A program made the translations under genes and the position numbers. DNA of 64,000 bases from contig JACQZI010000005.1 of the NCBI GenBank assembly GCA_016207825.1, positions 108,949-172,948 of the forward strand, in the 5' to 3' direction. Of the stretch, positions 11,455-64,000 are shown piece by piece. The notes under the pieces are model-generated. The model was not told where the DNA came from. It did not search any database and worked only from the letters and a program-made list of their open reading frames with translations. This DNA comes from Planctomycetota bacterium (GTDB taxonomy: Bacteria; Planctomycetota; MHYJ01; JACQXL01; JACQZI01). Numbering within the stretch: position 1 is the stretch's first letter; the number at the start of each line of letters is the position of its first letter.

Positions 11455-11539
11455 TATTAGTAAAGCTTCTCTATTAGTAATAGGCATTATTCTTTGTAAC
11501 AAACAATTCCTCTTGATTCTGGATTGTGAAAATAGATTC

Positions 11540-11637
11540 CCACGCCTTTACAGGCGTGGTTCTTACGGTTTCAAGCTTCGCTTGTCCAGCAACTTTGTTG
11601 CTGGAAACGGCTTTCACCCCCGCCTTCACAGGCGGGG
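11540..11637. repeat. three consecutive GC-rich hairpins (REP-like)
   Basis: CCACGCC-TTTACA-GGCGTGG (11540-11559), CCAGCAAC-TTT-GTTGCTGG (11586-11604) and CCCCGCC-TTCACA-GGCGGGG (11618-11637). The ORF 11513..11776 in the track is just a translation of these. Confidence 0.55.
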
Positions 11638-11674
11638 AACTCCCGCTTTATTAGAAGGTCTGGTTTGTGATTAT

Positions 11675-11925
11675 ATGAAATACGAAAGATACGGGATAAA
11701 AAGCCTGTCTGCCCGGAAAAGGGAAAAGAAACCGGCTCCCGGACAGCTTGACGAACTGATAAGTTTAAGCGGATAGTCCTTCATTCACAGCAAAGGCAAA
11801 TCCAAGCAATGGGAAGCCCGCTGGAGCTTTAAAAAGATGTCCGAATGGGTAAAACAAAACTTACGGATAGAATTATCTTCCGAACATATCAGGCGATTGG
11901 TGATGAAGAGGCTGAAAGCGAACTA
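11675..11925 (+). pseudogene. remnant of an IS630/Tc1-like transposase N-terminal HTH region (frameshifted, no DDE domain)
   Basis: Two frames read MKYERYGIKSLSARKREKKPAPGQLDELISLSG* and then ...ARWSFKKMSEWVKQNLRIELSSEHIRRLVMKRLKAN*. The second resembles the W-T-x-x-x-L-x-x-x-(I/L) ... S-x-x-T-(I/V)-x-R-x-L winged-HTH of IS630-family transposases (from memory). No catalytic domain follows. Confidence 0.4.
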
Positions 11926-12141
11926 ATACCTTGACGGGTCGTTTTCGTCAAAGTTCATCAGATACCGGTCTATAAACCGATGGATATCCGACATATCCTG
12001 CCACAATGCCCTTAAGTGGCGCTTTTCATGATCGTATTTATTCGTCCAGGAAGGGTTCCAGTTAGTATCGTATCCGATGCAACCAACGGCATTTAGTGTA
12101 AACATCAGGCAGATGATACCGAATATTATTTTAATTTTCAT
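11923..12141 (-). CDS. hypothetical small lipoprotein
   Basis: 72 aa. Signal plus lipobox-like MKIKIIFGIICLMFTLNAVGC. AGGAGG lies upstream of the ATG. Confidence 0.45.
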   Translation of the reverse strand: MKIKIIFGIICLMFTLNAVGCIGYDTNWNPSWTNKYDHEKRHLRALWQDMSDIHRFIDRYLMNFDENDPSRY

Positions 12142-21802: not shown

Positions 21803-21816
21803 GTTTATCCCCTTTT

Positions 21817-21846: not shown

Positions 21847-21856
21847 AATCTTCTAC

Positions 21857-22396: not shown

Positions 22397-22401
22397 ATTT
22401 A

Positions 22402-22716: not shown

Positions 22717-22717
22717 A

Positions 22718-23083: not shown

Positions 23084-23086
23084 AAA

Positions 23087-23353
23087 TTAATCCTGTTTTA
23101 GCTCAGCTTTCTTTACTATGCTTACCAGTCTCCACCTTTTGGTCTTGCTTAAGGGACGGGTCTCCATTATTTCCACCTCATCGCCTATATTAGCTTGTTC
23201 TTTTTCGTCATGGGCTTTATAGACGGTGGATTTTCTTATAAACTTTCCGTATTTCGGATGGCGTAACAGCTTTTCCGCTTTGACAGCAATGGTTTTATCC
23301 ATTTTATCGCTGATTACCACCCCGGTTCTCGTCCGCCTGAGACCTCGTTCCAT
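23087..23353 (-). CDS. rpsQ: 30S ribosomal protein S17
   Basis: Start at ATG 23351-23353 ([24 protein letters not shown]...), preceded by TAGGAGAATTACAA. The track extension to 23425 covers the promoter. Confidence 0.9.
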
Positions 23354-23384
23354 TTGTAATTCTCCTATTAGTGAAAAACGATAT

Positions 23385-34966: not shown

Positions 34967-35208
34967 CCTAATAGTATATCCCTGTCATCCTAATACCATT
35001 CCCTATATACCCTAATACCATATCCTATAGTCCCCAATACCATATCCTATAGCCCCTGATAGCATATCCTATAGCCCCTAATGATATACCCTATAGTCTC
35101 TAACAACATACCCTATAGTCCCTAATGGCATATCCTATAGTCCCTAATGGCATACGCTATATATCCTAATACTATTCCCTATAGTTCCTAATACCATACG
35201 CTATATAT
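34967..35208. repeat. array of 11 head-to-tail 22-bp units (consensus CCTAATACCATATCCTATAGTC)
   Basis: Units start at 34967 plus multiples of 22 with no phase slip. Each copy carries several substitutions. A degenerate unit lies upstream (34944-34966). A G-rich inverted copy is at 35250-35276. No ORF spans the array. Confidence 0.9.
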
Positions 35209-35490
35209 GCTAGCCAGTCACTTATAAATTGCGGGTAAAGCAATATTTTGGGGTAGGGGGTATAGGGGGCCAGGGGAATTCTAACGTTAAATTAAGATAC
35301 TGATTTTTAAATATTGCCGCCTAGGCACTAAGGCACAAAGGACGGCAGAGGGGGCTATTTGTTTTAAGGGTTCGGCATGGCGTCACCTGAACGCAGAAAA
35401 GTTATTGGCGAGGCATTTTGGAAAAATCATGTCCCGTAATCCGCTTAAACAGGTTGATAGGAGGCAAGGTGTGCGTCACCGGATAATCTC

Positions 35491-47946: not shown

Positions 47947-47980
47947 GGTAAAAAATTTTCATATATTTTTATTTTTTGGC

Positions 47981-48009
47981 TTGACAAAGTCATAATTATG
48001 GTTTATACT
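47981..48009 (+). promoter_or_regulatory. consensus sigma-70 promoter of the EndoQ-like gene
   Basis: TTGACA (47981-47986), 17 bp, TATACT (48004-48009). Confidence 0.5.
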
Positions 48010-50118: not shown

Positions 50119-50355
50119 ATGCTGCCACAAATAGGCGAGACTGCCGGACAGGTCTGGTATGCACTGGGCAAAAACGGGAAGACACCTGCAAGCAAACTGG
50201 GGAAAATGCTCAATCTTTCCCCCGAACATGTGCACCTGGCAATAGGCTGGCTGGCACGGGAAAACAAAATTCATCTTTCCTTTGACGGCAAAACAGCCAA
50301 TGCCGAACTGACGGACAGCGAAAAGAAGGCCTACGCGCACCACTGCAAGAAATAA
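50119..50355 (+). CDS. small winged-helix-like protein (78 aa)
   Basis: AAGGAGG sits 8 nt before ATG 50119; the track start 50089 is upstream. Sequence IGETAGQVWYALGKNGKTPASKLGKMLNLSPEHVHLAIGWLAREN has wHTH character. The family assignment is from memory only. Confidence 0.5.
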   Translation: MLPQIGETAGQVWYALGKNGKTPASKLGKMLNLSPEHVHLAIGWLARENKIHLSFDGKTANAELTDSEKKAYAHHCKK

Positions 50356-50357
50356 GC

Positions 50358-52160
50358 TTAAGCCTTGAACTGGAGCTTGTAGAGCTTGTAGTAGATGCCT
50401 TTTCTTTCCAATAGTTCCCGGTGGGTTCCCATTTCTTTCAACTCGCCGTGATGTATCACCAAGATTCTATCCACGTTTTTGATGGTGGAAAGGCGGTGGG
50501 CAATGATGATGGACGTTCGGCCTTTTATCACCTTCTTTATGGCGTCCTGGATATAGCTTTCCGTTTCTACGTCGATGGAGGAAGTGGCTTCATCCAGAAT
50601 CAATATCCTGGGATCGAAGACCAGTGCCCTAGTAAATGAAAGGAGCTGGCGCTGGCCCGTGGAAAAAGTGACGCCGCGCTCCGCAACCGAGCCCTCGTAT
50701 TGGTTGGGCAATTGTTCGATAAACGTATCCGCATGGACATACTTCGCGATTTCCCGGCATTTCTCCAGGCTGATATTTTTCTCACCCAAACAGATATTGT
50801 CAAGGACCGTGCCGGAAAAGAGGAATACATCCTGGAGGACTATTCCCATCTGTTTCCGCAATTCGGACTGGCGCAGGTTACGGATATCCACTCCGTCGAT
50901 AAGTATCCGCCCTTTGCCGACGTCATAGAACCGGGAAAGCAGGTTGATGATGGTGGATTTGCCGCTACCGGTTATCCCGACGATGGCGATGCTTTCACCG
51001 GGCTTGACCGAGAATGATATATTCTTCAGGACATAAAGAGGCGGGGCTTCCTTATTCTCATCCGAAGGATAGGCAAACCAGACGTCTTCAAACTTTATTT
51101 CGCCCTTTATTGCGGGCAAAGGAATCGGCTTTTCCGCATCGACGATATCTTCGGGCGTATCCATAATCTTAAACACCCTTTCAGCCGAAGCCATGGCGGA
51201 CTGGAAAAGGGTGTATTTATCCGCCAAATCCTGTATCGGGTCGAAAAAGTGCATGGTATAGGTCAGGAAGGTAACCAGGACGCCTAATTCGATGACTTTA
51301 TCAAAAACCGCGCTGCCCCCGTAATACAACACCAGCCCGATAGAAACAGCCCTCATGATAGTTACCGAAGAAATAAACGAACCGTCATATTTAATCGAAC
51401 GGTAGCATGCATCAAAATGCTCCTTGTTGATATCGTTAAACAGTTCCTGGTTTTTATCCTCCCGGTTGAATAATTTGGTGATGCGGATTCCCGCGACATT
51501 TTCCGCGATATAGGCGTTAATCCGGGCAAGTTTTATCCTGATATCACGGTAGGCATTGCGTATCCGCACTTTAAAGAAAAAGGTCAGCGGAATCAGGAAT
51601 AACGCAATTGAAAGTGCGATTAAGGTCAAATAGATATCCATCCACCACATCACGATAATAAGGCCGATAAGCATTACGACATCCTGGAAAACCGTAATCA
51701 GCCCGACCGAAAATAATTCGCTCAATGTCCCAATATCGTTGGTGACGCGGGTGACGAGGCGGCCGACCGGGTTTTTATCGAAGAACCGGAGCGACATTTT
51801 CTGCAGGTGGGAAAAGAGCCGCGCCCTCAAATCAAACATTATTTTCTGCCCCAGGTAGGCCAAAACATAGGTGGAAACATAATCGGTAAGCCAGCTTAAA
51901 AGCATCACCGCCAGGTAAAGTGCGGACAGGCTGTATAATTCCTGGAAATTCCTGGGCTTAATCCCTAAATCTATTATCAAGCCTATCAGCCTCGGCCCGG
52001 CAAGGAAACACGCGGTTGAAACCAGCACCAAAAAGAGCCCCAGTGCAAAGACGGCGTAATATGGGCGGGCATAACCAAACAGCCTCCTCATGAGCGTATG
52101 GTCATACACCTTGCCGAGGATTTCATCATCCGCGTGATAACTTTTTCCGTGGCCTCTCAT
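50358..52160 (-). CDS. ABC exporter, fused permease/ATPase (heterodimer partner B)
   Basis: Six-TM domain, then Walker A GITGSGKST, signature FSTGQRQ and Walker B ILILDEATS. Overlaps the upstream partner (ATGA). Confidence 0.9.
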   Translation of the reverse strand: MRGHGKSYHADDEILGKVYDHTLMRRLFGYARPYYAVFALGLFLVLVSTACFLAGPRLIGLIIDLGIKPRNFQELYSLSALYLAVMLLSWLTDYVSTYVLAYLGQKIMFDLRARLFSHLQKMSLRFFDKNPVGRLVTRVTNDIGTLSELFSVGLITVFQDVVMLIGLIIVMWWMDIYLTLIALSIALFLIPLTFFFKVRIRNAYRDIRIKLARINAYIAENVAGIRITKLFNREDKNQELFNDINKEHFDACYRSIKYDGSFISSVTIMRAVSIGLVLYYGGSAVFDKVIELGVLVTFLTYTMHFFDPIQDLADKYTLFQSAMASAERVFKIMDTPEDIVDAEKPIPLPAIKGEIKFEDVWFAYPSDENKEAPPLYVLKNISFSVKPGESIAIVGITGSGKSTIINLLSRFYDVGKGRILIDGVDIRNLRQSELRKQMGIVLQDVFLFSGTVLDNICLGEKNISLEKCREIAKYVHADTFIEQLPNQYEGSVAERGVTFSTGQRQLLSFTRALVFDPRILILDEATSSIDVETESYIQDAIKKVIKGRTSIIIAHRLSTIKNVDRILVIHHGELKEMGTHRELLERKGIYYKLYKLQFKA

Positions 52161-53920
52161 TCAATCCTCTCCAAATCGCTGATTAATTCCTGCTGCCTGT
52201 AGAAACCGGAATACCTGCCTTTTTTGGCCAATAATTCCTGGTGGGAACCGGTTTCGACGATGCGGCCTTTTTCCATGAAGATTATTATATCCGCAATCTT
52301 CACGACCGGCAGGCGGTGCGAAATGATTACGGTCGTAATGCCGGGCAATACGGTCTTGAACCGGCTCAAAATCGTTTCCTCGGTTTCCACGTCCACGCTG
52401 GAAAAACAATCATCCAGGACGAGTATTTTGGGCTTCTTAGCGAGTGCTCGCGCAATGGTGATGCGCTGTTTCTGCCCGCCGGAAAGGTTTACCCCCCGTT
52501 CTCCCAGGAGCGTCTCGTATTTTTCCGGGAAGCTTTCGATATCCTGGTTAATCATGGATAACTCCGAAGACTTCCTGATATTCGGCATCTCCGAATCGAT
52601 CGTTTGAGACAGGCCGAACCCGATATTTTCTTTTATGCTTTCGGAAAAGAGAAATACGTCCTGCGGGGTGAATCCGATTCGCCTGCGGAGTTCCCCCAAA
52701 TCATATTGCCTGATATCAACCCCGTCAATCAAGACGCTTCCTTCGGTCGGGTCAAAGAGCCGCGGGATGAGGTTTATCAAGGATGTCTTGCCGCAGCCGA
52801 CCGGTCCCATAATCGCCACGGTCTTGCCCGCCGGTATTTTGAGGCTTACTCCGGCTAAAGCCGGTTCTTTCTGCACACTTTCCAGCCCAAGCCCCTGGTA
52901 GGCCAATCCGACGTTTTTAAACTCGATTGCACCCTCTATTTCTTTGGCGACCGGTTGCGCGGGCGAAACGATTTCCGCTTTCGCATTAAAGATTTCCCTC
53001 AAGCGCTGCATGGAAGCGGCCGAACGCTGGAATATGGAAATCGTCCAGCCCAGCGCCATCATCGGCCAGAGCAGCCTGCCCATATATAAAGTGAAAGCGA
53101 CAAAAGTGCCCGGGGAAATGACCCCGTTAATCACTTCCTTGCCGCCGAAATAGAGAACCACCAAAATGCCCGCAGCAGCGCAAAAATGGAGCGTGGGTGA
53201 AAAAACCGCCTCCACTTTGGCAAGCGAAAGATTTTGATTCACATATTTGTCGTTTATCTCTTTAAAACCGGCTTTTTGGTTTTCCTCCTGGGCGAATGAC
53301 TTCACGACGCGGATGCCGGCGAAGTTTTCCTGCGCGTATGTGCTTATTTCCGCCGAGGTCTCCTGTATATCCTTGAAACGATGGTGGATAAGATTCCCCA
53401 TACGGTTGACGAAAAACGGCAGGAACGGCAATAGGAACATGCTCAAAATGGTGAGCTTCAGGCTCAGGAAAATCATTATCACCGGAACGGTGAATATATA
53501 AACGATGATATCCGCCCCGATAAAAAGCCCACGGGCATAAAACTGGCGCACGGCCTCGATATCGCTGGTCGCACGGGACATGATATCCCCGGTATAAGTC
53601 CGGTTAAAATAATTGCTGGAAAGGGTTTGCAGGTGGGAAAATAATTCCTCCCGGATATCGCGCGCCACCTTGAAGGAAGTCCCGAAGAAGAAAATACGGT
53701 ACCAGTATCTGCCCCTTCCCTGGATGATGCCCAATCCGACGTAGATTATCGCATACCATATAATAATTGCCAGCGCATTCGGCTTGGATAAATCGTCAAT
53801 CGCGTATTTGATGACCAGCGGGAAAGCGACATCCACCAGGTCGACGATTCCCAGCAGGATTATCGCCATGAAAAACTGCCACCGGTAACGCTTGAAGTAT
53901 ATCCAAAAAGCCTTAAACAT
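52157..53920 (-). CDS. ABC exporter, fused permease/ATPase (heterodimer partner A)
   Basis: Walker A GPVGCGKTS, signature LSGGQKQR and Walker B ILVLDDCFS. Confidence 0.9.
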   Translation of the reverse strand: MFKAFWIYFKRYRWQFFMAIILLGIVDLVDVAFPLVIKYAIDDLSKPNALAIIIWYAIIYVGLGIIQGRGRYWYRIFFFGTSFKVARDIREELFSHLQTLSSNYFNRTYTGDIMSRATSDIEAVRQFYARGLFIGADIIVYIFTVPVIMIFLSLKLTILSMFLLPFLPFFVNRMGNLIHHRFKDIQETSAEISTYAQENFAGIRVVKSFAQEENQKAGFKEINDKYVNQNLSLAKVEAVFSPTLHFCAAAGILVVLYFGGKEVINGVISPGTFVAFTLYMGRLLWPMMALGWTISIFQRSAASMQRLREIFNAKAEIVSPAQPVAKEIEGAIEFKNVGLAYQGLGLESVQKEPALAGVSLKIPAGKTVAIMGPVGCGKTSLINLIPRLFDPTEGSVLIDGVDIRQYDLGELRRRIGFTPQDVFLFSESIKENIGFGLSQTIDSEMPNIRKSSELSMINQDIESFPEKYETLLGERGVNLSGGQKQRITIARALAKKPKILVLDDCFSSVDVETEETILSRFKTVLPGITTVIISHRLPVVKIADIIIFMEKGRIVETGSHQELLAKKGRYSGFYRQQELISDLERIE

Positions 53921-53978
53921 AAATTGTTTTTATATAAAATCGAGGGTTCCGATCCGCTTAGGGTAAAAACAGCGGGCC

Positions 53979-55001
53979 TTAACTTCGCTTTTTCGGAATG
54001 CCTGATATTTGTTTCATTATCACATCAACCGATTTATAAACATTCGTCTTGCCGCTTAAAATCTCATCAACAGATTTATCGATAAGCGTCCTTATTTTTT
54101 TATCATTGCCGATAAAGTCCTCGAACTCCTTGAAAACGAGCGACTTTAGTTTCTCTTTGACGATAAGTTTGCGCTTCAGGGATAACTCCCCGCTTTCTTT
54201 CAAGTGATGCCAGCGCTCTTCTAGAAAACCCAGGACCTCCGTGATGCCGACTGAATTGATTGCCTCGGTCTTGAATATGGGAATAGCGGTTTTGCATCCA
54301 TCCGAGAGCGAAGTCTTATTCCGGCAATTCAAGGATATTTCGCCCCCCGAAGTTTCACTTGGGGGACTCCATTTCATTTCGCACGTGTTCCTAATGGCAT
54401 CTATCAGGTTATCCGCACCGGGCCGGTCGGATTTATTCATCACGATTACATCGGCTATCTCCATGATACCCGCCTTCATCGCCTGGATGGCGTCGCCTGA
54501 TTCGGGCGAAAGGACGAGGATGGTCGTATCTACATTCTTGAATATCTCTATCTCGGACTGGCCCACCCCGACCGTTTCTATGATGACGTATGATTTGCCG
54601 GAAGCATCGATGATATCCGCCGCGTCGGAGGTGCTCCGGCTGATGCCGCCTATCCAGCCGCGGGTAGCCATGCTCCTGATAAAAACGCCGGCATCAATCC
54701 CGATTTTCTGCATCCTGATACGGTCGCCCAGGATTGCCCCGCCGCTGAAGATACTCGAAGGGTCAATGGCGATAATGCCGACCGTTTTATTGCGCTTCCG
54801 CAAATTTATGGCCAGCTCGTCGACCAGGGTGCTTTTCCCCACGCCGGGCGGCCCAGTAATCCCTATCCGGTGTGCTTTACCCAGGTGCGGGTAAAGTGCT
54901 GATAAAAGCTTGGTGGATTTATCGGCGTCGTTTTCAACCAGCGAAATAGCCTTGGCCAAGCTCGGCTTATCTCCGGCTAAAATCTTTTTCTTATCAATCA
55001 T
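53979..55001 (-). CDS. meaB: MeaB/ArgK-type G3E GTPase (mutase-associated chaperone family)
   Basis: GITGPPGVGKSTL, ETVGVGQSE and MNKSD. Contains an apparent 25-aa insertion (see findings). Confidence 0.8.
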   Translation of the reverse strand: MIDKKKILAGDKPSLAKAISLVENDADKSTKLLSALYPHLGKAHRIGITGPPGVGKSTLVDELAINLRKRNKTVGIIAIDPSSIFSGGAILGDRIRMQKIGIDAGVFIRSMATRGWIGGISRSTSDAADIIDASGKSYVIIETVGVGQSEIEIFKNVDTTILVLSPESGDAIQAMKAGIMEIADVIVMNKSDRPGADNLIDAIRNTCEMKWSPPSETSGGEISLNCRNKTSLSDGCKTAIPIFKTEAINSVGITEVLGFLEERWHHLKESGELSLKRKLIVKEKLKSLVFKEFEDFIGNDKKIRTLIDKSVDEILSGKTNVYKSVDVIMKQISGIPKKRS

Positions 55002-55002
55002 T

Positions 55003-56172
55003 TTATTGGCGCGAAGAAACCCAGTTTTTGCCGAATAATTCCTTGTTTATGACTATTCGCTGGATTTCTGACGTGCCTTCGTAAATTTCCGTTACTTTGG
55101 CGTCGCGGAAAAACCTCTCCACCGCAAACTCCTTGGTATAACCCATCCCGCCGTGTATCTGGACGGTTTCCTTGGCCGCCTTATTGCATACGGTCGAGGC
55201 GAATAATTTCGCCATGCAAGCCTCTTTTATATGGGGCTGTTTTTTATCTTTGAGCAAAGCCGCCTGGTAAGTCGAAAGCCGGGCGGCATTTATTTCTGTG
55301 GCCATATCGGCTATCTTCCACTGTATTGCCTGGAATTCCGCCAGTGCCTTGCCGAATTGTTTCCGCTCCTGCGCGTATTTCATCGCGGCGTCAAGGCATG
55401 CCTGGGCAATACCAACAGACTGCGCGGCAATCCCGATTCGGCCGCTGTTTAAAAGTTCCATCGCGAGATTAAACCCCTTGTTTTCCTCGCCCAGCATGTT
55501 TTCCGCCGGCACGGCGCAATCTTCCAAGACAATCTCGCTCGCTTTGGCGCCTTTTACGCCCATTTTTTCCTCGATTGTGCCAAGCTTAAAACCCTTGAAT
55601 GACGGCTCAACCAAAAACGCGCTGATGCCTTTGCCCCTCAAAGATTTATCCGGATTGGTCCGGGCAAAGACAATCGAAACACTGGCAATCGGGGCGCTCG
55701 TGATAAAAATCTTGTTGCCATTAAGGATATATTGATTGCCTTTCTTGTCCGCTTTGGTAATAAGCGAAGCGGCATCGCTTCCGGAAGCCGGCTCGGTCAA
55801 GGCGTATGCCCCGATAATTTCCCCACCGCCAAGCTTGGGCAGGTATTTCTTTTTCTGCTCGGTTGTCCCATATTTTACCAGTGCGTTGCAAACAAGAGAA
55901 TTATGGACGGACATGGTTACCGAGGTTGAGGCACAGACGCGGCTGATTTCTTCCAGGACCAAGACAAGTGAAAACGTATCCAGCCCCGCCCCGCCGAATT
56001 CATCCGGCACGATAATCCCCCAAAAGCCCAGTTCCGCCAGCTTCTTGATTACTTCCTGCGGTATCCGCTCCTCGCGGTCTATTTGCTTGGCGTATTTGGA
56101 AAGGGTTTCTTGGGCAAATTCGCGTGCGGTATCCCTGATTAGCTTCTTCTCTTCATTCAATTCGAACAACAT
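55003..56172 (-). CDS. acyl-CoA dehydrogenase (short/medium-chain type)
   Basis: Start taken at ATG 56170-56172 (MLFELNEEKK...) because a TATAAT lies between it and the TTG at 56214. Typical ACAD sequence (GAYALTEPASGSDA..., IYEGTSEIQR). Confidence 0.9.
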   Translation of the reverse strand: MLFELNEEKKLIRDTAREFAQETLSKYAKQIDREERIPQEVIKKLAELGFWGIIVPDEFGGAGLDTFSLVLVLEEISRVCASTSVTMSVHNSLVCNALVKYGTTEQKKKYLPKLGGGEIIGAYALTEPASGSDAASLITKADKKGNQYILNGNKIFITSAPIASVSIVFARTNPDKSLRGKGISAFLVEPSFKGFKLGTIEEKMGVKGAKASEIVLEDCAVPAENMLGEENKGFNLAMELLNSGRIGIAAQSVGIAQACLDAAMKYAQERKQFGKALAEFQAIQWKIADMATEINAARLSTYQAALLKDKKQPHIKEACMAKLFASTVCNKAAKETVQIHGGMGYTKEFAVERFFRDAKVTEIYEGTSEIQRIVINKELFGKNWVSSRQ

Positions 56173-56182
56173 AAGGTCGTTT

Positions 56183-56210
56183 ATTATAGGATTAATTAGC
56201 CCACTGTCAA
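56183..56210 (-). promoter_or_regulatory. consensus promoter giving a (near-)leaderless acd transcript
   Basis: On the minus strand: TTGACA (56205-56210), 16 bp, TATAAT (56183-56188). Ten nt separate the -10 from the ATG, and there is no SD. Confidence 0.5.
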
Positions 56211-56252
56211 ACAAATCAATCCGCCATCGCTCCGGAACAACGACCGTTTATG

Positions 56253-56333
56253 TCACTCTGAGCAGAGTAAAGAGCCTAATCCGTGAGAATAGATTCTTCT
56301 CCCGTCCCGCCTGGCGGGACCGGCTCAGAATGA
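56253..56333. repeat. MITE/REP-like element with terminal inverted repeats
   Basis: TCACTCTGAGC (56253-56263) versus GCTCAGAATGA (56323-56333). Inner hairpin is GTCCCGC-CTG-GCGGGAC (56304-56320). Confidence 0.5.
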
Positions 56334-56346
56334 TATGATAAAATGT

Positions 56347-56374
56347 TTGACCGATTCGGATACTTCGATATAAT
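56347..56374 (+). promoter_or_regulatory. consensus promoter giving a short-leader/leaderless transcript
   Basis: TTGACC (56347-56352), 16 bp, TATAAT (56369-56374). Thirteen nt separate the -10 from ATG 56388, and there is no SD. Confidence 0.5.
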
Positions 56375-56387
56375 CTATTTAAGACGT

Positions 56388-58958
56388 ATGGTCACCATTA
56401 AAATAAACAATGCCGAATTAACCGTCGCGGAAGGATTAACCATCCTCAAAGCGGCGCTGGCGAATAATATCTATATCCCGCACCTTTGCGCACATCCGGA
56501 TTTGCCGCCTTCGCAGGATTCAAGGACTTCCGATAAAATATTCCGCGGCGACCTCAAATCAACTAATGAACCGGTGAACAATTTAACCGAAGTCATCGGC
56601 TGCCAGTTATGCCTGGTTAAAATAGGCGGGGTGGATAAGCCTCAGCGTTCTTGCGCCACGATAGTTAAAAACGGGATGTCCATAGAAACTGATACACCGG
56701 AATTATTGTCCCTTCGGAAGGACAATCTCTCTAAAATAATTGCCGAGCACCCGCATTCCTGCCTGACCTGCGCCCAGCATGAAGGCTGTTCCTTGACCCA
56801 ATGCTCCAGCAACGTCCCTAATAACGAGCGGTGCTGTCCCAAATTCGGCAAATGCGAACTGCAAAAGGTCTCCGAGTATATCGGCATCAAGGCAGAAACG
56901 CCCCGCTACAAACCCAAGGAGATGCCTGTTATCGAAATAGACCCGCTTATCAAGCGCAATTATAACTTATGCATCGGCTGCACCAGATGCGTGCGCACCT
57001 GCAAAGACCTGCGCGGGATAGAGGCATTGGGATTTGTCATAATCGGCGGCAAGGTTGTTGTCGGCTCGCATGAACCGGCGCTTAAGGATTCCGGATGCAA
57101 GTTCTGCGGAGCGTGCATAGAAGTCTGCCCGACCGGCGCGCTTATGGATAAAGATGTAAAATCAACCGAGCGCGAAACGGATTTAATCCCCTGCAAATAC
57201 ACCTGCCCGGCGGGCATTAATGTCCCTGAATATATCCGCCAAGTAAAACTGGGCAATCAGGATAAAGCATTGGAAGTGATAAAAGAATCGGTTCCGCTTC
57301 CCGCGGTTTTGGGGAATGTCTGCTTCCATCCCTGCGAGGAAGTCTGCCGCCGTAAGGAAGTTAACGAACCGATTGCAATCTGCGCACTCAAACGGTACGC
57401 AACAGATAATAGTACCGAAAAACCACAATCTAAAAACTCTAATCTAAAAACTAGCCACATTGCAGTGATTGGCTCAGGACCTTCCGGACTGACTGCCGCG
57501 TATTATCTTGCCAAAGAAGGTTATCCGGTAACCGTATTTGAATCACAGCCCAAGGCCGGCGGGATGATGCGTTACGGCATCCCGGCTTACCGGCTGCCTG
57601 ATGAAATACTGGACGCGGATTTAAAACACATCACGTCAAGCGGTGTGGAGATAAAACTGAACCAGACTCTCGGAAAAGATTTCACCGTGGAAAGCCTTAA
57701 AAAAGACGGATTTAAAACCATCCTTATTTCTACCGGCGCCCAGATGGCCAAACAAATCCCGCTTAAAGGATTAAATCTAACATCTGATACCCAACAACTA
57801 ACATCTGTATTATGGGCGATGGATTTCCTGCGCGGTGTCCGCCAGGGGAAAAAATACACAATCCCATCAAAAGTCTTGGTCATCGGCGGCGGGAACGTGG
57901 CAATAGATACAGCGCTTACCGCCAAGAGACTCGGCGCCAAGAGCGTTGAGATGGCATGCCTGGAATCAGCCGATGAAATGCCCGCCCATGACTGGGAAAT
58001 AGAACAGGCGCGCGAGGAAGGGATAACCATAAATAATTCCTGGGGTCCGGAGGAGCTTATCGGAGATTCCAACTGCGTCAAAGGCGTCTGCTTCACCAAG
58101 TGCACCGCGGTTTTTTCCGCCGAAGGCGGATCCGCCTTTGGCGGAGACTCTGCTAAACGCTTCAATCCCCAGTTTGACAAGTCCGTTACCCATAAAATAG
58201 AGGCGGATATGGTCATTCTTGCCATCGGCCAGAAACCGGATAAGGAATTGCTCCAAAAGATGGGATTGGATGTGGCAAATTCCGGCGCAATCAAGGTGGA
58301 TGAAAATTCACTGGAAACAAATCAGCCCGGCATCTTTGCCTGCGGTGAAGCCGCGCATAATCCGAGCTCGGTCATCCAATCTATCGCCGAAGGAAAGAAG
58401 GTTGCCGTCTCGATTGACAAGCATCTCGGCGGCGACGGCAAACTTGTAACTTCTAGCATGAAACTTCTAACTCCTAATCCCCTCTTCGGCCGCGATGAAT
58501 CCTTCTCCTCCTGGCAGCGCGTCAAGATGCCCACGAGACCGATAGCGGAAAGGGTAAATGATTTCGGGCAGATAGAAAAGGGGTTCAGTAAAGACAATGC
58601 GATAAAAGAAGCCGCGCGGTGCTTGCAATGCGATATGCGGTTCTGCATCACGCCGGTTACCTTCCCGCCCAAGAAAGAGTCGCACCTAAAGTTTGACGCC
58701 CAATCACTTGACGCAGTCCCGGAAAAGGAAGGCGTATATCAGTTGCTGGATGACGCCAAGAACGTGCTGATTATAAAAGGGGTAGCAAACCTGAAAGAGG
58801 GACTGAAGGAACAGCTCTCAAATAGCAAGGCAAAGCATTTCACCTTTGAGCTTGAACCGTATTATACCAAGCGCGAAAGTGAATTGATACAGCATTATAT
58901 CTCCCAGCACGGCAAGATGCCCGAAGGCTCAAGCAGTGAACTGGATGATTTGTTTTAG
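56388..58958 (+). CDS. fusion oxidoreductase: NuoG-N-like [2Fe-2S]/[4Fe-4S] module plus GltD/SudA-type FAD/NAD(P)H module plus an unusual C-terminal extension
   Basis: MVTIKINNAELTVAEGLTIL... (2Fe-2S ferredoxin-like). Cys clusters CLTCAQHEGC, CIGCTRCVRTC and CKFCGACIEVCP. GltD-like CPAGINVPEY...CFHPCEEVC. Dinucleotide folds VIGSGPSGLTAA and VIGGGNVAID. The track start 56343 is upstream of the promoter -10. Confidence 0.8.
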   Translation: MVTIKINNAELTVAEGLTILKAALANNIYIPHLCAHPDLPPSQDSRTSDKIFRGDLKSTNEPVNNLTEVIGCQLCLVKIGGVDKPQRSCATIVKNGMSIETDTPELLSLRKDNLSKIIAEHPHSCLTCAQHEGCSLTQCSSNVPNNERCCPKFGKCELQKVSEYIGIKAETPRYKPKEMPVIEIDPLIKRNYNLCIGCTRCVRTCKDLRGIEALGFVIIGGKVVVGSHEPALKDSGCKFCGACIEVCPTGALMDKDVKSTERETDLIPCKYTCPAGINVPEYIRQVKLGNQDKALEVIKESVPLPAVLGNVCFHPCEEVCRRKEVNEPIAICALKRYATDNSTEKPQSKNSNLKTSHIAVIGSGPSGLTAAYYLAKEGYPVTVFESQPKAGGMMRYGIPAYRLPDEILDADLKHITSSGVEIKLNQTLGKDFTVESLKKDGFKTILISTGAQMAKQIPLKGLNLTSDTQQLTSVLWAMDFLRGVRQGKKYTIPSKVLVIGGGNVAIDTALTAKRLGAKSVEMACLESADEMPAHDWEIEQAREEGITINNSWGPEELIGDSNCVKGVCFTKCTAVFSAEGGSAFGGDSAKRFNPQFDKSVTHKIEADMVILAIGQKPDKELLQKMGLDVANSGAIKVDENSLETNQPGIFACGEAAHNPSSVIQSIAEGKKVAVSIDKHLGGDGKLVTSSMKLLTPNPLFGRDESFSSWQRVKMPTRPIAERVNDFGQIEKGFSKDNAIKEAARCLQCDMRFCITPVTFPPKKESHLKFDAQSLDAVPEKEGVYQLLDDAKNVLIIKGVANLKEGLKEQLSNSKAKHFTFELEPYYTKRESELIQHYISQHGKMPEGSSSELDDLF

Positions 58959-59053
58959 GCAATAAACAACGGGATTAAACGCCTGCCCGTCCAGAGCAAA
59001 GCGTAGGCGGGGATTATCCATCCAAGAGTAAACAAGCCGCTGATTACGATGAT

Positions 59054-60397
59054 TTATTCTCCCAACACCTGCGGCAGGAGCCAGGCATAGGCAAGCGGCA
59101 GGTAGATAACCTGTGTCGGTGTTATTTCATCCCAGCCGGCATAGTCGCGGGTAAAAACAATTATCTTCTTTGCCTTTATCCGCCTGCCGAAATTCACCAA
59201 CGCCCACCTGCCGGATTTCTCCAGAGGGAAATCATATAACGCGCCGACCAGGTGCCTGACCAATCCGTGCTTCAGGCAGAAGCCGGTAACATCGCTCGTC
59301 TCGCTCGCCCAATATTTTATATCTTTTATCCACGGAATAAACCGCAATTCGTTATAGACTAAATTATCAATAAGCGCTTTCCGGTCTGTGCGGGTATCAA
59401 TTGGCTGGAATGAATCTGCCAGCATATTCCTTAACCCATTGTCATTGAAATATAAAATCGGCGCACCTTTATCAGGATAAGGGAAAACCTTATTAACGCA
59501 ATAATCGGATTCAAGCGCATCTATAAAAGCCGAAACCTTGCGCCATTCTGCCTTGATTTCCTGTGCTAACTTATTAACGTTTAAGACCGTACCGTGTATG
59601 CGGGTTAACTCGTCCAGAATCTTCCTTTGTTGGGTTTGCTCTAACCGTTCTTGCTTGGACTTGGGCTGGTGGGAAAACTGAGCCTGGTAAATCTTCCGCA
59701 AAATAGCCGGACGCTTGGAAAGGGTATATTCCTTAACCGTTTCGGCGTATCCGCCGTAACGCAGGTATCCATCCAAAACAGGAAGCGCTAAGGTGTAAAA
59801 ACTGCTTTTGGGCAAATCCTTTATTTTCTCCGGCAGTTTGTATTTAGGCAGGTAAATATTATTCGGGTTAAGCATCCGGTTCCAGTATTCCGTGTAAGAG
59901 ACCATACCGAGTTCAAATCTTTGAATATTGTCATTCTGACCCCGATTACTGTCGGGGGAAGAATCTCTAACCGAACTCGCCATAATTAGTTTACTATTAT
60001 CCATTAACTTTTCCAGCTCCTGAACCATGGCGGAATCAAGGTGCTGGACTTCATCAAGGAAAATCCAGAGCCGTGTTTTCTTATCCGGGCTGAATCCGTT
60101 AATGAATCCGGCGACATCATCCGCTCCGGTGAATCCTTCGCGCGTCAGGACATCGTCCAGATTAAAATAGAATATGGCGGAAGGCGGAATCGACTTTTCC
60201 TTGATAAGGTGTCTGATAGTCAATTGAAGAAGAGTGGTTTTTCCCGCACCGCGCGGGCCGGAAAGGAGTATCGGCTTATCGCCTTTAAGCGCGTCCAATA
60301 ATTTGGGCAATAATGAACGGTCAAAAGACCAGCTTATGAGTTTGGATTCATCCTGGCGCCAAGGGTTTTGCTGTAGGAAATTCTCCGCATTAAACAT
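59054..60397 (-). CDS. AAA+ superfamily ATPase (COG1373-like, AAA_14 plus DUF4143-type)
   Basis: ATG 60395-60397 after AAAGGAG; the track start 60421 is a GTG inside a repeat. Walker A is LSGPRGAGKTTLL and Walker B-like is WIFLDEVQ. Confidence 0.7.
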   Translation of the reverse strand: MFNAENFLQQNPWRQDESKLISWSFDRSLLPKLLDALKGDKPILLSGPRGAGKTTLLQLTIRHLIKEKSIPPSAIFYFNLDDVLTREGFTGADDVAGFINGFSPDKKTRLWIFLDEVQHLDSAMVQELEKLMDNSKLIMASSVRDSSPDSNRGQNDNIQRFELGMVSYTEYWNRMLNPNNIYLPKYKLPEKIKDLPKSSFYTLALPVLDGYLRYGGYAETVKEYTLSKRPAILRKIYQAQFSHQPKSKQERLEQTQQRKILDELTRIHGTVLNVNKLAQEIKAEWRKVSAFIDALESDYCVNKVFPYPDKGAPILYFNDNGLRNMLADSFQPIDTRTDRKALIDNLVYNELRFIPWIKDIKYWASETSDVTGFCLKHGLVRHLVGALYDFPLEKSGRWALVNFGRRIKAKKIIVFTRDYAGWDEITPTQVIYLPLAYAWLLPQVLGE

Positions 60398-60478
60398 AAA
60401 AACTCCTTTCCTTTTTGCCACAAAGACACCAAGCCACTAAGAAAAATTAGACCTTTCTTTGCGCCTTTGCGGTGAACC

Positions 60479-60544
60479 TTGTCAACTCAAATCTTCCACT
60501 TTGTCAAGTCTTTTCTTCCATTTTGTCAACCCAAATCTTCCGTT
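60479..60544. repeat. three direct 22-bp units each starting TTGTCAA
   Basis: TTGTCAACTCAAATCTTCCACT (60479), TTGTCAAGTCTTTTCTTCCATT (60501) and TTGTCAACCCAAATCTTCCGTT (60523). Confidence 0.85.
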
Positions 60545-60848
60545 TATTCTATAAAACTCAATATAATCAACAACCATCTTCAATATAGTGAGTTTCTTAT
60601 GTGCATTATATTAAAAATGTATCTTTTCATACCCCTCTGTGCCCTCTGTGGTCGTATTTTACCCCAAAAAAGTCGGTTATTTCGGCACGTTTTGCAGATA
60701 AAACCTACTTTTATTACAAGAATCTATTCAATTTTACCCATCAAATGGGCTGATTACGTGTTATATTGAGTATTATACCATAAGAAGTCGGTTATTTCAA
60801 CAATTTCTGCCTATGGGGGTGGGGGTACCCTACCCCTACTCCACCCTA

Positions 60849-61112
60849 ACCATACCTCTACTCCATAGTGACCATTACTATACTCCGGTGTAATCATACC
60901 CCTACTCCCCTGTAATGGCTATAATACTCTGGTCTAACCATACCTCTACTCTATGGTGACCATACAGATACTCCCCTCTAACCATACTCCTATCCCCTTG
61001 GTGCGTAGCCTCCCCTTGGGGATAGCCATATCTATACTCTATAGTAGCCATACCTCTACTCCATGGTGACCATACCTCTACCTAGGTATAATCACACCCC
61101 TACTCCATGATA
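60849..61112. repeat. array of ~12 tandem 22-bp units (consensus ACCATACCTCTACTCCATGGTG)
   Basis: Units start at 60849, 60871, 60893, 60915, 60937, 60959, 60981, (61004, degenerate), 61024, 61046, 61069 and 61091. Two units are 23 bp and the degenerate one is 20 bp. The array is preceded by the palindromic G/C run GGGGGTGGGGGTACCCTACCCCTAC (60815-60839). Confidence 0.9.
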
Positions 61113-61199
61113 GGAATAGATATACTTACAGAGTGGATTACTAACCATCATAGGTAACACTTTGGCTCTGTTCGGAATAGCATTACCAATAACTTCCCA

Positions 61200-62048
61200 T
61201 TATTTTGCCGGTCGGTGGGAGATGATCTCCTTGCAGGCCGTAATAAATTTATCTACCCGCTCCTTTTGCTTTTCATCCTTTAGGTCTTTTTTGAACTTCT
61301 CGCAGTAATTCAGCCAGTTATCCTTGCCCAAGGTTTTCTCCAATATTTCCAGGGCATTTTCATTCCAGATTTTCTCTACTCTTTCTTTATTAAGAGTTGC
61401 GGCATCTATCCCTCGCTCCTCCAGTGTTTTTTTTAGGTATCGGTCGTCTTTATCCGGATAATAATCGATATTTATAGTATTTTTGTCTTCCCCAGTTGCA
61501 AGATAATCTAATATTTTTCGTGCCGATGAATCTCCGGGAATCTTAGATAGGACATATTTAGCCGGATATTTCTCTGAAAGCGAATCGGACCAATCATCCA
61601 AAAGAGGGTAGATTTCCCTATCGTTTTCAAATAGTATGCGTTTTTCCCCGTCCTGATTAAGGGCAAGATAATTAACAAGGATAGAGGAACAAGAATTATC
61701 TCGACTTTCAAAGGCATTTAACAGATAAATCGCTCGTGATGTAGCTTTTACCCAATTGGGCAGTCTTTTATCTCTGGGTGTTTTTACCTGCTCTTCCAAA
61801 AAATCCTTGCATTTTTCGACAATCGAGAATTTAAGATCCGACAAACCAACATCATTCATAAGAAATGCCAGCATATCTGTTTCTTTGATTTCATCCCTGA
61901 GAGACTTTATGTCATTACCAAACTTTTCTTTTTCCTTCATCCATTTGGGGTCTTCTTGCGATTGCCCATCGGCCTTGATAACCGTATAAACTGCGAACGA
62001 GGCTGCCAGAATGCCTAACAATGCCATTGTTTTAAAAATCTTTTGCAT
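61200..62048 (-). CDS. hypothetical secreted protein (282 aa), AT-rich
   Basis: Signal-like MQKIFKTMALLGILAASFAVYTVIKA. Charged, helical-looking remainder. No family recognised. Confidence 0.6.
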   Translation of the reverse strand: MQKIFKTMALLGILAASFAVYTVIKADGQSQEDPKWMKEKEKFGNDIKSLRDEIKETDMLAFLMNDVGLSDLKFSIVEKCKDFLEEQVKTPRDKRLPNWVKATSRAIYLLNAFESRDNSCSSILVNYLALNQDGEKRILFENDREIYPLLDDWSDSLSEKYPAKYVLSKIPGDSSARKILDYLATGEDKNTINIDYYPDKDDRYLKKTLEERGIDAATLNKERVEKIWNENALEILEKTLGKDNWLNYCEKFKKDLKDEKQKERVDKFITACKEIISHRPAK

Positions 62049-62068
62049 AACTCGTTATCCTTTCTTCT

Positions 62069-64000
62069 CTATGGTTTATATAGCTTTGCATCTGTCGCTC
62101 TTGAAATCTCATCATCAATAATTTCTAATTCCACTAAAATGCTATCCGCGTCTTTAGTGTCTTCTTTAAAAAGCACTTTAATAGGGTTAGGATCGTTTTT
62201 GAATTCCAATTGATCAATAACCTCATCGTTTTTAAGCGCGGTTAGCGTCCACTTATAGGTATTGATTTTTCCGTCTTTATCAAAACTCCCACTTCCATCA
62301 ATATCAATAACCAATTGTTCTTCTGTATTTCTAGAGATTTTCTCCAGCCGAATAATAGGCATTGGTCTCTCGTTAACAACTGCCACTACATCAACTTCAT
62401 CAAACCACTTAGGAGCTTTAGTCGCATTTTCTGCCTTAACGCGAGCTAAAGCAAACGAACTGTTGTGTAAATGCAGAAGGGAAAGTCCAGCATAGGTGTA
62501 CAACTGATTTTCTCCAACAGCATCATTGCCATCACCAAAAGACCACTTAAAAGATGTGTTTACGTCTTGTTGGTTAGGATTAGCCGTAAACTGAATTTTA
62601 GTTTTAAGCTTGGGGTCAGGCCGTTCAGCCTTCGGTGAAACATAAAAAGATAGAGCATTGACTGTATCAATAGTGAGATTGGTTGTTCCTGTGGCAATAG
62701 TATTATCCAAATTATTTGCGCCACCGCCAGCTATCTTTTCCATTTCCCAGCGTTTTGGTTTACTATCTCCCGGATCAACCACTTTTGCTCCGGCACGAAT
62801 GTAATAACCAAAATTATCGGAACAAACCAGGTTGATTTGTGTTCCTAAAGTAACCCAGCCATTAAAATTCATCCGTATAGCTATTTTTGTGTCTATGTCT
62901 AGCTCTGTGGCATCTGAGTCAACGTCAGGAGTGAAACCAGGACCATCAAGAAAATAAATTTTTCCTTGCAGTGGAACTATTGTAGACCACATACTCTTTG
63001 GATTGTCCTTGGAATTACATCGCGCATTGCTGAATGAAACAGAATTATCCGGCTTTATTATATACATTGCTGACCTTAAAACCTCTTGATTAATAATCAG
63101 AGGTAGATTATAATCGTTTGGTTTAACGGTACCAAATATCTCAAATCCAAATTGAACAGAGTTTGTGCGAGTTATGACACCCAAATATGGTTTGCCAAAT
63201 CCTTTTGGATGTTGATAGAATGGCTTGCAAGTATTATCGTTGGAAACTTCAACTTTGTCAAGCCCTTGGGGGATAGGAGTAAATGCAAGATCTACCCAAA
63301 CGACAGTGGCTGTTTGCTTCCCGATTTGTTCGCCATCCGCATTGTTTTTATTAATAACAATGGCGGTGTCACTCATCAATTGGCTTTCTTGCTCGCCGGA
63401 AAGGTCGAAATCAACCCAATTATTATGTTCCTGATTATCCGGCGGTAATACTAACGTAATACTATCGGCAACCGAGTTAGCAGCATTTGAAAAACTTAAT
63501 TTACCGCTGCCATCGTTCTCAGGGGGGGCATTTTTATCAGGAAGATTATAAAGGTAAACAGTTAATTCCGCATTGGATTTGTTTCTTATACGGCAGGGAA
63601 CTTTAGGCATATAAGTCGTTGTCTTTGATTTACGAGGGACAATATAATCGGTTAATCCAGGGGCTTTTTCCTTATTAATCTGCATTTCTACCAGAGATGT
63701 GTCCTGAGTATTCCCGGCATTCGTCTCGTAAAACTTCCCTCCTCCAAATAATGATGTTGTTATTCCTCCGCTCACAACCACGGTTTGGCCATTGCGCGTG
63801 CTTACCGGATACAGCGTGCCTTTCAACGAACTCGCAATATTAACATGATTAGGAAAGTTAACGCTGGCCATCAGCAAGTTACAAGTAAGCTCTATATGGC
63901 CATTGGTCAGGTTGAGTGTTCCGACCGATGGATTCTCTGTATCATTGATAATCGCAATTGCGCCAGTATTTGCCCCATTAACCGTTATTGCCGCTCCCTG
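62069..64000 (-). CDS. large surface protein, C-terminal part with PKD-like domains (N-terminus beyond right window edge)
   Basis: The track starts it at TTG 63877. My translation of 63878-64000 in the same frame has no stop (QGAAITVNGANTGAIAIINDTENPSVGTLNLTNGHIELTCN-LLMASVNF...), so it most likely continues past the edge. PKD-like signatures are FTANPN...FKWSFGDG and IDGSGSFDKDGKINTYKW. Confidence 0.7.
   Translation of the reverse strand, partial: QGAAITVNGANTGAIAIINDTENPSVGTLNLTNGHIELTCNLLMASVNFPNHVNIASSLKGTLYPVSTRNGQTVVVSGGITTSLFGGGKFYETNAGNTQDTSLVEMQINKEKAPGLTDYIVPRKSKTTTYMPKVPCRIRNKSNAELTVYLYNLPDKNAPPENDGSGKLSFSNAANSVADSITLVLPPDNQEHNNWVDFDLSGEQESQLMSDTAIVINKNNADGEQIGKQTATVVWVDLAFTPIPQGLDKVEVSNDNTCKPFYQHPKGFGKPYLGVITRTNSVQFGFEIFGTVKPNDYNLPLIINQEVLRSAMYIIKPDNSVSFSNARCNSKDNPKSMWSTIVPLQGKIYFLDGPGFTPDVDSDATELDIDTKIAIRMNFNGWVTLGTQINLVCSDNFGYYIRAGAKVVDPGDSKPKRWEMEKIAGGGANNLDNTIATGTTNLTIDTVNALSFYVSPKAERPDPKLKTKIQFTANPNQQDVNTSFKWSFGDGNDAVGENQLYTYAGLSLLHLHNSSFALARVKAENATKAPKWFDEVDVVAVVNERPMPIIRLEKISRNTEEQLVIDIDGSGSFDKDGKINTYKWTLTALKNDEVIDQLEFKNDPNPIKVLFKEDTKDADSILVELEIIDDEISRATDAKLYKP

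Follow-up and report, generated by a model that had tools for sequence, protein, structure and literature searches.

Theta plasmids carry iterons, head-to-tail repeats of ~20 base pairs (bp) that span about two turns of the helix; each system has its own repeat sequence, which fits the protein that binds it. In R6K and pPS10 the iterons are 22 bp long. Here we describe a row of 22-bp direct repeats, array 2, in a stretch of 64,000 nucleotides from a Planctomycetota bacterium (assembly GCA_016207825.1, contig JACQZI010000005.1, positions 108,949 to 172,948; hereafter the window), where it lies upstream of a gene for an ATPase-nuclease of the AAA_14+DUF4143 (COG1373) type. Repeat length, arrangement and system-specific repeat sequence are common to array 2 and the plasmid iterons, and so are a candidate inverted-repeat operator at the promoter of the adjacent gene, an AT-rich stretch and a second cluster, which in the window is array 1. 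In the F plasmid the iterons are accompanied by an AT-rich region, by an inverted-repeat operator at the repE promoter and by a second cluster, incC, which acts by titration and looping (PMC13028717). The likeness to F is one of layout only. An ATPase-nuclease stands here in the place of a Rep initiator, DnaA boxes are missing, the arrays have 11 to 19 units as compared to four to five per cluster in F, and the setting is a chromosomal accessory island.

Centromere arrays with an upstream adaptor gene are known from tubC-tubR-tubZ, parC-parMR, sopC and the omega-repressor heptad arrays. They likewise consist of direct repeats, sometimes with inverted end copies, upstream of an operon for which the array doubles as operator, and in three homologous loci discussed below (L278, L279 and L280) the operon encodes a small DNA-binding protein followed by the nucleoside triphosphatase (NTPase). 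The NTPase here is, however, not ParA, ParM or TubZ and carries a nuclease domain; the window and locus L273 are without an adaptor gene, and no plasmid or phage context was found. The archaeal Orc1/Cdc6 proteins (PDB 2qby) share with the window ATPase an AAA+ domain, a lid and a winged helix, as well as a gene position beside repeated DNA and an AT-rich region. The match is weak (template modelling (TM) score ~0.3, predicted local distance difference test (pLDDT) 65) and a PD-(D/E)XK domain is added here, while the archaeal origin recognition boxes are few in number and stand as inverted sites on either side of an unwinding element, in contrast to the long tandem array of the window.

The ATPase itself matches the models of the candidate defence family PDC-S01 and shares its architecture of an ATPase and a PD-(D/E)XK domain (PMC12988326, PMC3424549). 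DUF4143 (COG1373) is classified in the PD-(D/E)XK superfamily (PMC3424549). PDC-S01 was described as a very common, single-gene fusion of the two domains and as a defence candidate not yet validated; among the candidate defence genes of prokaryotes, COG1373/PDC-S01 is reported to rank fourth in frequency (PMC12988326). Whereas the family was described as a single gene without a non-coding component, an array, a leader and an optional helix-turn-helix (HTH) gene accompany it here. Literature searches on DUF4143, COG1373 and PDC-S01 returned no functional or repeat-related description, and the module of array, leader and optional HTH was in none of the PDC-S01 descriptions found. Finally, the CsrB/RsmZ sponge RNAs resemble the repetitive, non-coding minus strand of array 2 in their many GGA/GGAG words; array 2 differs from them in that it is without Rfam match, promoter and terminator of its own or fold signal, and in that its composition is not kept in loci L279 and L280.

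A conserved 22-bp array upstream of the ATPase-nuclease gene

Printing the sequence at a stride of 22 bases revealed 13 head-to-tail units in strict register. The initial annotation had placed about 12 units of 22 bp at 60815-61112; the period stands, and count and extent were revised to those given in Table 1. The consensus unit reads ACCATACCTCTACTCCATGGTG on the plus strand and GGAGTAGAGGTATGGTCACCAT on the minus strand; three units differ from it at no more than one position, as compared to none in 100 dinucleotide shuffles. The unit at 61003, which contains CCCCTTGGGG, is degenerate, as had been noticed before, and the unit at 60915 is weak as well. Tandem Repeats Finder (TRF) split the array into segments of period 22 (60827-60915 and 61026-61081) and period 44 (60846-60987). 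Self-identity at lag 22 was 0.55 against a window background of 0.257 ± 0.046, and the two strongest lag-22 signals of the whole window are those of arrays 1 and 2. The register did not drift over 220 bp, identity being 0.62 at lag 220 and 0.23-0.25 at lags 219 and 221. The two units that had been annotated as 23 bp long are therefore balanced by 21-bp neighbours, and the overall 22-bp register is kept. Both arrays are pyrimidine-rich on the plus strand (C+T 0.61-0.64, G 0.07-0.11), in agreement with the first reading, and the G-rich strand of array 2 is the sense strand of the downstream ATPase gene.

A coding repeat was ruled out, no open reading frame of at least 50 amino acids (aa) covering array 2 and the period not being a multiple of three. 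The short-read Logan contig L001 (SRR12113406) is 100% identical to window positions 60650-64000, the whole array included, and this independent identity argues against an assembly artefact. A CRISPR array was also rejected, since the units are contiguous without spacers and the neighbouring genes that were examined encode no cas domains. As an intergenic tandem repeat with a unit that is not a multiple of three, array 2 falls into the descriptive class of prokaryotic non-coding satellites (PMC6749651).

Array 2 lies ~430 bp upstream of the ATPase gene, and the same arrangement was found elsewhere. All five other loci with an ATPase homologue and enough upstream DNA (L273, L276, L277, L279 and L280; Table 1) carry a 22-bp array in the same place and orientation, and each of these arrays ends in a palindrome centred on GGTA(C/T)C that is followed by a homologous AT-rich leader. 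There was no counter-example among loci with enough upstream DNA. The contigs of L274, L275 and L278 break 93-180 bp upstream of the operon and were not counted for or against the association. In L278, L279 and L280 a small HTH_23/HTH_32 gene precedes the ATPase gene. In all seven arrays, array 1 among them, self-identity is highest at lag 22 or 44, and the register stays fixed over 66-440 bp. The genes that flank the module are unrelated between loci; the upstream gene was co-directional with the module in all five known cases.

The association did not appear in two sets of control loci. None of 39 random genome loci, which were chance matches of a scan of the genome collection with a two-unit core pattern, gave a lag-22 signal, and the ATPase or HTH of the module was encoded at none of 231 loci (L042-L272) with unrelated 22-bp arrays, which came from metagenome and viral scans (TACTC four times or CCTAAT three times at 22-bp spacing). 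The units of the scanned arrays were not similar to that of array 2 (best agreement 14/22 over 44 rotations). Viral contigs, plasmids and phages yielded no close relatives of the ATPase and no DNA similarity to array or leader. Array 2 is the window's copy of a conserved module, not described before, that lies upstream of the ATPase-nuclease genes in a Planctomycetota-associated subfamily of COG1373/PDC-S01. The proposal that the arrays form a functional family rather than random slippage products is borne out by these homologous arrays in the same position at five loci of different organisms. Period and position of the array are conserved; its composition is not, because the arrays of L279 and L280 are neither G-rich nor GGA-rich.

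Some observations were made alongside these searches. Unrelated 22-bp arrays are common in metagenomic and giant-virus contigs, including several contigs of giant-virus metagenome-assembled genomes (MAGs), and three contigs of one metagenome (Ga0224511; L050, L108 and L116) carry such arrays. A distant COG1373 gene in Prevotella has no upstream array, which ruled out the array as a general feature of COG1373. In Prevotella nigrescens (NZ_CP082843.1, 385350-392477; L282) the COG1373 ATPase gene lies between two genes with Eco57I-like methylase domains and by an Mpi-family DNA invertase, as if it had inserted into a shufflable restriction-modification locus or belonged to one.

Table 1 Features of the module in the window and arrays at the homologous loci (positions refer to the window unless a locus is named; ATPase identities are to the window protein)
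Feature	Position	Strand	Basis or remarks
Array 2, 13 units of 22 bp	60827..61112	-	Stride print, TRF, lag identity, identical copy in contig L001
GGTACC-centred palindrome, minus strand GGGGTAGGGTACCCCCACCCCC	60815..60836	.	Promoter-proximal end of array 2
Box A overlapping sigma-70-like promoter, TTGAAATAACCGACTTCTTATGGTATAAT	60772..60800	-	Box A proper 60785-60798
Conserved dyad TAAAAGTnnnTTTTA	60699..60713	-	Between both A boxes; alignments A1 and A5
Box A' (second copy) CCGAAATAACCGACTTTTTTGGGGTAAAAT	60656..60685	-	115 bp from box A
Three 22-bp-spaced boxes, GAAGATTTGGGTTGACAAAATG and variants	60479..60541	-	TRF period 22, 2.9 copies
ATPase-nuclease gene, 447 aa, AAA_14 + DUF4143 (COG1373)	59054..60397	-	Pfam, PADLOC, public gene call P0002
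Array 1, 11 units of 22 bp, unit related to array 2	34967..35208	-	Lag-22 identity 0.77
Inverted G-rich mini-array GGGGTAGGGGGTATAGGGGGCCAGGGG	35250..35276	.	~40 bp beyond array 1
Decayed relic of small HTH_23/HTH_32 gene	11513..11926	+	tblastn E = 2e-13; in-frame stop, disrupted N-terminus
Array of L273, 17 units, GGTATGGGGTATACAGCGGTAG	L273: 7527-7905		ATPase 49% identical; no gene between leader and ATPase
Array of L276, 12-13 units, AGGCTACCGAGGTGTATGGGTA			ATPase 47% identical; PD40-like gene between leader and ATPase
Array of L277, at least 6 units, GGCTATAGAGGTGTAGAGGGTA			ATPase 52% identical; 284-aa gene between; contig starts inside array
Array of L279, 13 units, CGGTGTGCCCGATGCTCACTAT	L279: 6756-7046		ATPase 36% identical; HTH_23/HTH_32 gene between leader and ATPase
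Array of L280, 19 units, GTGCTACTCATAACCGTTAGGA	L280: 4800-5220		ATPase 35% identical; HTH_23/HTH_32 gene between leader and ATPase

Palindrome, leader and ATPase-nuclease

The palindrome at the promoter-proximal end of array 2 is made up of the last unit and an inverted partial unit. Within ~1.9 Mb of sequence examined the long form of the motif occurred only at four loci with G-rich arrays, and the GGTAYC centre is common to all six loci, so that the palindromic boundary formed by a G-run, already seen in the first annotation, is a conserved part of the module. On the sense strand, the six homologous upstream regions (alignments A1 and A5) show the order palindrome, box A, dyad, second box A and start-codon boxes. 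About 15 bp separate the terminal palindrome from a sigma-70-like site, TTGAAA-17-TGnTATAAT (60800-60772; promoter scan 11/12, extended -10). Box A is kept in L273, L276 and L277; its pattern in the module is AAATAACCGACT ... GTAAT ... CAATAT, and in three loci a TCCC...GGGA hairpin stands before it. The dyad can be generalised over the loci as TAAAAGTnACTTTTA, and the second box A follows the first at 113-115 bp in each of the four G-rich loci. Near the start codon the module carries two or three GGGTTGACAAA boxes 22 bp apart, which in the window lie just upstream of the ATPase gene, and the box and spacing of the window recur in L276, L277, L279 and L280. The leaders are AT-rich, with a GC content of 0.26-0.40 as compared to 0.41-0.47 for the loci. 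The same extended -35-like word as in the start-codon boxes, TTTGGCTTGACAAAG, was also seen at 47975-47989 on the plus strand, ~90 bp upstream of a gene starting at 48067. Because of this recurrence the word may be a general promoter element of the organism rather than a module-specific operator.

Both domains of the ATPase were assigned by Pfam above cut-off (AAA_14, E = 1.7e-15; DUF4143, E = 6.5e-8), and PADLOC matched the protein to PDC-S01 with E = 1.5e-25. Its closest homologue, P0003, is 76% identical, and NCBI names the nearest homologue as Planctomycetota; an exact-sequence look-up of two versions of the window ATPase and of P0003 gave no match. The structure model (pLDDT 64.6, predicted TM score 0.45) predicts an AAA+ domain, a lid, a winged helix and a nuclease-like C-terminus. 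The best match in the PDB was Cdc6/Orc1 on origin DNA, followed by clamp loaders, Apaf-1/CED-4, the origin recognition complex and DnaA, all with TM scores of ~0.3. We take the Cdc6/Orc1 match from the model as a lead and nothing more.

Turnover of the unit and co-variation with the DNA-reading parts

The units of the five G-rich arrays agree at 11-18 of 22 positions when aligned in the same orientation, as compared to 7-10 of 22 when reverse-complemented, and the C content of the sense strand is 7-11% in these arrays. L279 and L280, which come from the same metagenome, served as a natural experiment. Identity between their ATPase genes is 93% in nucleotide and 91.4% in amino-acid sequence; the flanks are 82-89% identical, with 89% before the arrays, and the distal leaders 68-82%. 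The array cores, however, gave no blastn match and agree at only 9-12 of 22 positions in a flank-anchored register, and the proximal leader and the HTH gene have diverged, the HTH proteins being 46.7% identical. About 10 of the 40 differences between the two ATPases fall into ~12 residues (301-312 in window numbering), and none of 200,000 permutations was as clustered. The AlphaFold model places these residues in a beta hairpin, the wing of a winged helix that is predicted to follow the AAA+ lid and to precede the nuclease-like C-terminus. From the sequences of this pair, the array thus appears to vary in step with the HTH protein and the wing, the two likeliest DNA readers of the locus. A divergence so uneven implies cassette exchange rather than drift in place.

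Within the arrays two age classes could be told apart. The young arrays of L273, L279 and L280 differ from their own consensus by 8-10%, and 87% of these differences are transitions; array 2, array 1 and the array of L276 are older, with 18-27% mismatch, about half of it transitions. Several arrays show a 44-bp super-period with two alternating unit subtypes. The old arrays, at 18-27% divergence, are still perfectly in register. If indels occur at ~1/10 to 1/20 of the substitution rate, several register shifts would have been expected in them and none was seen, which suggests selection on phase.

Genomic setting and array 1

The two genes that flank array 2 are both on the minus strand, and the gap between them is ~800 bp long (60398-61199, from the gene start at 60397). 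The GC content falls from about 0.50 to 0.39-0.43 beyond 60 kb. The unusually long gap between minus-strand genes and the position at the edge of an AT-rich island, both pointed out by the initial annotation, were thus recovered. The 5' neighbour of array 2 is a 282-aa orphan whose sole match among 5.8 billion proteins was itself, so that this gene gives no synteny information; upstream of it lies a giant He_PIG/PKD protein. The window otherwise resembles an ordinary chromosome, with ABC transporters, MeaB and an acyl-CoA dehydrogenase, and neither tRNA genes nor Rfam families were found in it. A Candidatus Brocadiaceae MAG (L012, a chance pattern match) is syntenic with window positions 18400-23360 at 50-60% amino-acid identity, which puts the source, apparently an uncultured member of the phylum, close to the anammox Planctomycetota.

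The closest relative found, L281, is ~81% identical in nucleotide sequence to window positions 50290-59016. The similarity stops ~40 bp short of the ATPase gene, on the side of its 3' end, and the whole module is not at that site of L281, which carries an MNT-like nucleotidyltransferase gene (L281:8847-9312) where the window has the ATPase and array island (59016 onward). From this comparison the ATPase gene, the leader, array 2 and the low-GC genes beyond together form a variable accessory island, in agreement with the drop in GC content. The point downstream of the 871-aa oxidoreductase gene looks like an insertion site for variable islands.

Array 1, 26 kb from array 2, has neither leader nor ATPase and lies 120 bp upstream of a metallophosphoesterase gene, beside low-GC orphan genes. 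The two arrays are therefore not equivalent, only array 2 having leader and ATPase. Their consensus units share ACCATA[T]CCTnTAnTCC (12/22 ungapped), which substantiates the common ACCATA core proposed earlier; the inverted G-run said to flank array 1 was located as well (Table 1), on the opposite side relative to the palindrome of array 2. Array 1 could be a second binding cluster or a remnant.

The sole HTH homologue of the window is the decayed relic listed in Table 1, 49 kb from the module in a gene-poor stretch (11348-12565). Two GC hairpins that resemble repetitive extragenic palindromic (REP) elements, CCCACGCCTTTACAGGCGTGG and CCCCCGCCTTCACAGGCGGGG, lie beside it; Rfam gave only a sub-threshold sraL match (E = 0.023). 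At ~12290-12560, between a 72-aa open reading frame and a HIT-family gene, there is a GC-rich, hairpin-rich non-coding stretch over which Rfam returned nothing at E ≤ 1, and which could be an undescribed structured RNA. At the homologous loci, several REP-like GC hairpins (GTCCCGCCGAAGCGGGA and variants) were seen between the upstream gene and the array of L280 (4540-4700) and not in L279. In L279 a TIR_2-domain gene (5504-6556) lies directly upstream of the array, the HTH gene and the ATPase gene and is co-directional with them, which suggests a defence-island setting.

Interpretation and rival explanations

The palindrome near a promoter-like site and the 22-bp-spaced boxes at the start codon give the module a layout that looks protein-binding, and the constancy of period and position, set against a complete change of the repeat sequence, agrees better with a row of protein-binding sites than with an RNA. 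The reading that we prefer, and to which we give an even chance on the evidence of sequence comparison, is that in array 2 phased protein-binding sites are lined up in the manner of iterons and control the operon promoter or form a platform at it. Direct repeats of ~17-22 bp, phased at ~22 bp as in iterons, make up the 13 units of array 2 and six other arrays, and among the functions first put forward, protein-binding iterons, centromere-like sites or a sponge RNA, the iterons fit best and the sponge RNA was not supported. Array 2 would act as double-stranded DNA in which contiguous, helically phased sites follow each other once per 22 bp, or about two helix turns. They would be recognised by a sequence-specific DNA-binding protein from the neighbouring operon, which could be the small bipartite HTH protein (at loci that encode it), the ATPase through its winged-helix domain, or both. 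We infer that this reader would coat the array and the palindrome, which abuts the AT-rich, promoter-bearing leader of the gene for the AAA+ ATPase / PD-(D/E)XK nuclease. The resulting nucleoprotein complex could act on the promoter through autoregulation or titration, or could shield it from read-through out of the co-directional upstream genes; alternatively, it could be a loading platform for the ATPase.

Several points weigh against this reading. The co-variation comes from one informative pair and possibly from a single recombination that replaced adjacent segments, and concerted evolution of tandem repeats can speed turnover without selection. In the window and in L273 the module is without an HTH gene, and the structure model of the ATPase is weak (pLDDT 65, TM ~0.3). 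Array 1 is a solo relative, without leader or ATPase. Five arrays are strongly depleted of C on the sense strand, which duplex binding does not require and which hints at a strand-specific process. Array 2 is also the most degenerate of the arrays, with 27% mismatch to its consensus; as the HTH homologue has decayed too, this copy may be past its prime and decaying.

The array might instead be a hitch-hiking satellite without a function of its own, regenerated by slippage or recombination at a hotspot in palindrome and leader, with unequal crossing-over homogenising the units and driving their turnover. That the within-array variants of the young arrays are to 87% transitions, like mutational noise, that the 44-bp super-periods point to block duplication, and that array 2, array 1 and the L276 array are degenerate would all be expected of such a satellite; non-coding satellites without known function do exist in prokaryotes (PMC6749651), and many unrelated 22-bp arrays occur in metagenomes. 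A neutral hotspot does not, however, predict a common 22-bp period over seven arrays with unrelated units, retention next to ATPases of only 35% identity, the lack of net indels at 18-27% substitution divergence or the co-variation with the HTH gene and the wing, and we consider the satellite unlikely. Phase variation, in which changes in copy number would alter the spacing or phasing of upstream elements to the promoter and so switch the ATPase gene, seems barely credible. Defence genes are often phase-variable, the array sits directly upstream of promoter-like sequence, and copy number ranges from at least 6 to 19 between loci, but the units are long and imperfect (array 2 is 73% identical to its consensus), which disfavours frequent slippage; two independent assemblies of the population agree exactly, and additions of whole 22-bp units barely change helical phase.

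Action as RNA, in a read-through transcript on the ATPase sense strand that would be a C-poor, GGAG-rich sponge or a source of ~22-nucleotide guides for the ATPase-nuclease, would account for the C depletion and G-richness of that strand in five arrays and for the co-directional upstream gene in all five known cases. No terminator-like site precedes the array in the window, the GC-rich hairpin that closes the array could be a 3' structure, and a fixed 22-nucleotide unit of hypervariable sequence beside a nuclease looks guide-like. RNAalifold on four leader sequences did find covarying hairpin arms (TAGGCA/TGCCGA in the window as compared to TCCC/GGGA in the others), but they were equally good on both strands, so that RNA structure and palindromic protein sites could not be separated. 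Rfam gave no match at gathering scores and none at E ≤ 1 over 60350-61250, the promoter scan found no promoter-like site upstream of array 2 on the minus strand, no terminator-like site follows the array on that strand, and the palindrome hairpin is not followed by a consistent T-run (a U-tract in RNA). The minus strand of array 2 folded no better than shuffles (z = -1.57); single-sequence folds of the two strands did not discriminate, the plus strand folding better if anything, owing to the palindrome. The GGAG-type words noticed on the minus strand at the outset are present, but neither G-richness nor GGA-richness is kept in L279 and L280, and hairpin loops that present GGA and are conserved among homologues, as in a sponge RNA, were not found. 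The initial suggestion of a sponge RNA for a Shine-Dalgarno- or GGA-binding protein is thus not upheld, and we hold an RNA function of either kind to be distinctly improbable. Still less probable, in our view, are the iterons or centromere of a mobile element that is integrated or was once autonomous, with the Orc1/Cdc6-like ATPase as initiator or partition motor and array 1 as a copy-control-like cluster. A 22-bp array and an AT-rich leader do precede a gene for an AAA+ protein that has a predicted winged helix and Cdc6/Orc1 as its closest fold, a second related array lies 26 kb away, the module is an accessory island that is not at this site in the closest relative, and there are parallels to oriS and incC of the F plasmid (PMC13028717). 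Pfam, however, detected no Rep-family protein in the module or its neighbouring genes (the adjacent gene being AAA_14+DUF4143) and no partner of the ParA, ParM or TubZ type in the module, as a partition centromere would have. The leaders, AT-rich as they are, contain no conserved DnaA boxes within one mismatch and the window has no GC-skew switch, which speaks against a replication origin. Housekeeping genes surround the module, which lies on a contig longer than 200 kb, and no relatives turned up in the plasmid and phage collections. The fold match is weak, and the ATPase has a nuclease domain and matches a defence-candidate family.

Implications

Beyond the preferred reading of array 2 as a row of protein-binding sites, we consider one further proposal, which is speculative and, in our view, unlikely. 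Array, palindrome and leader would be the cis 'address' in a hitherto unrecognised system of two or three parts, at the centre of which stands the PDC-S01 protein, an Orc1/Cdc6-like AAA+ ATPase with a PD-(D/E)XK nuclease attached; the hypervariable array and its matching HTH protein and wing would be swapped jointly as a specificity cassette, and the array would load, sequester or license the ATPase-nuclease on the DNA of the cell itself. If true, this would be a chromosomal iteron-addressed nuclease system without a described counterpart.

The arrays represent a rare kind of bacterial element, whose period is kept while the sequence is turned over across deep divergence; non-coding satellite families are reported to be rare in prokaryotes (PMC6749651). 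As the contigs of four of the nine homologues (L274, L275, L277 and L278) are cut off inside the array or at most 180 bp ahead of the operon, such modules are probably under-reported in assemblies. For the uncharacterised COG1373/PDC-S01 family, the module provides a testable partner in one subfamily, namely a phased, hypervariable array with a conserved leader.

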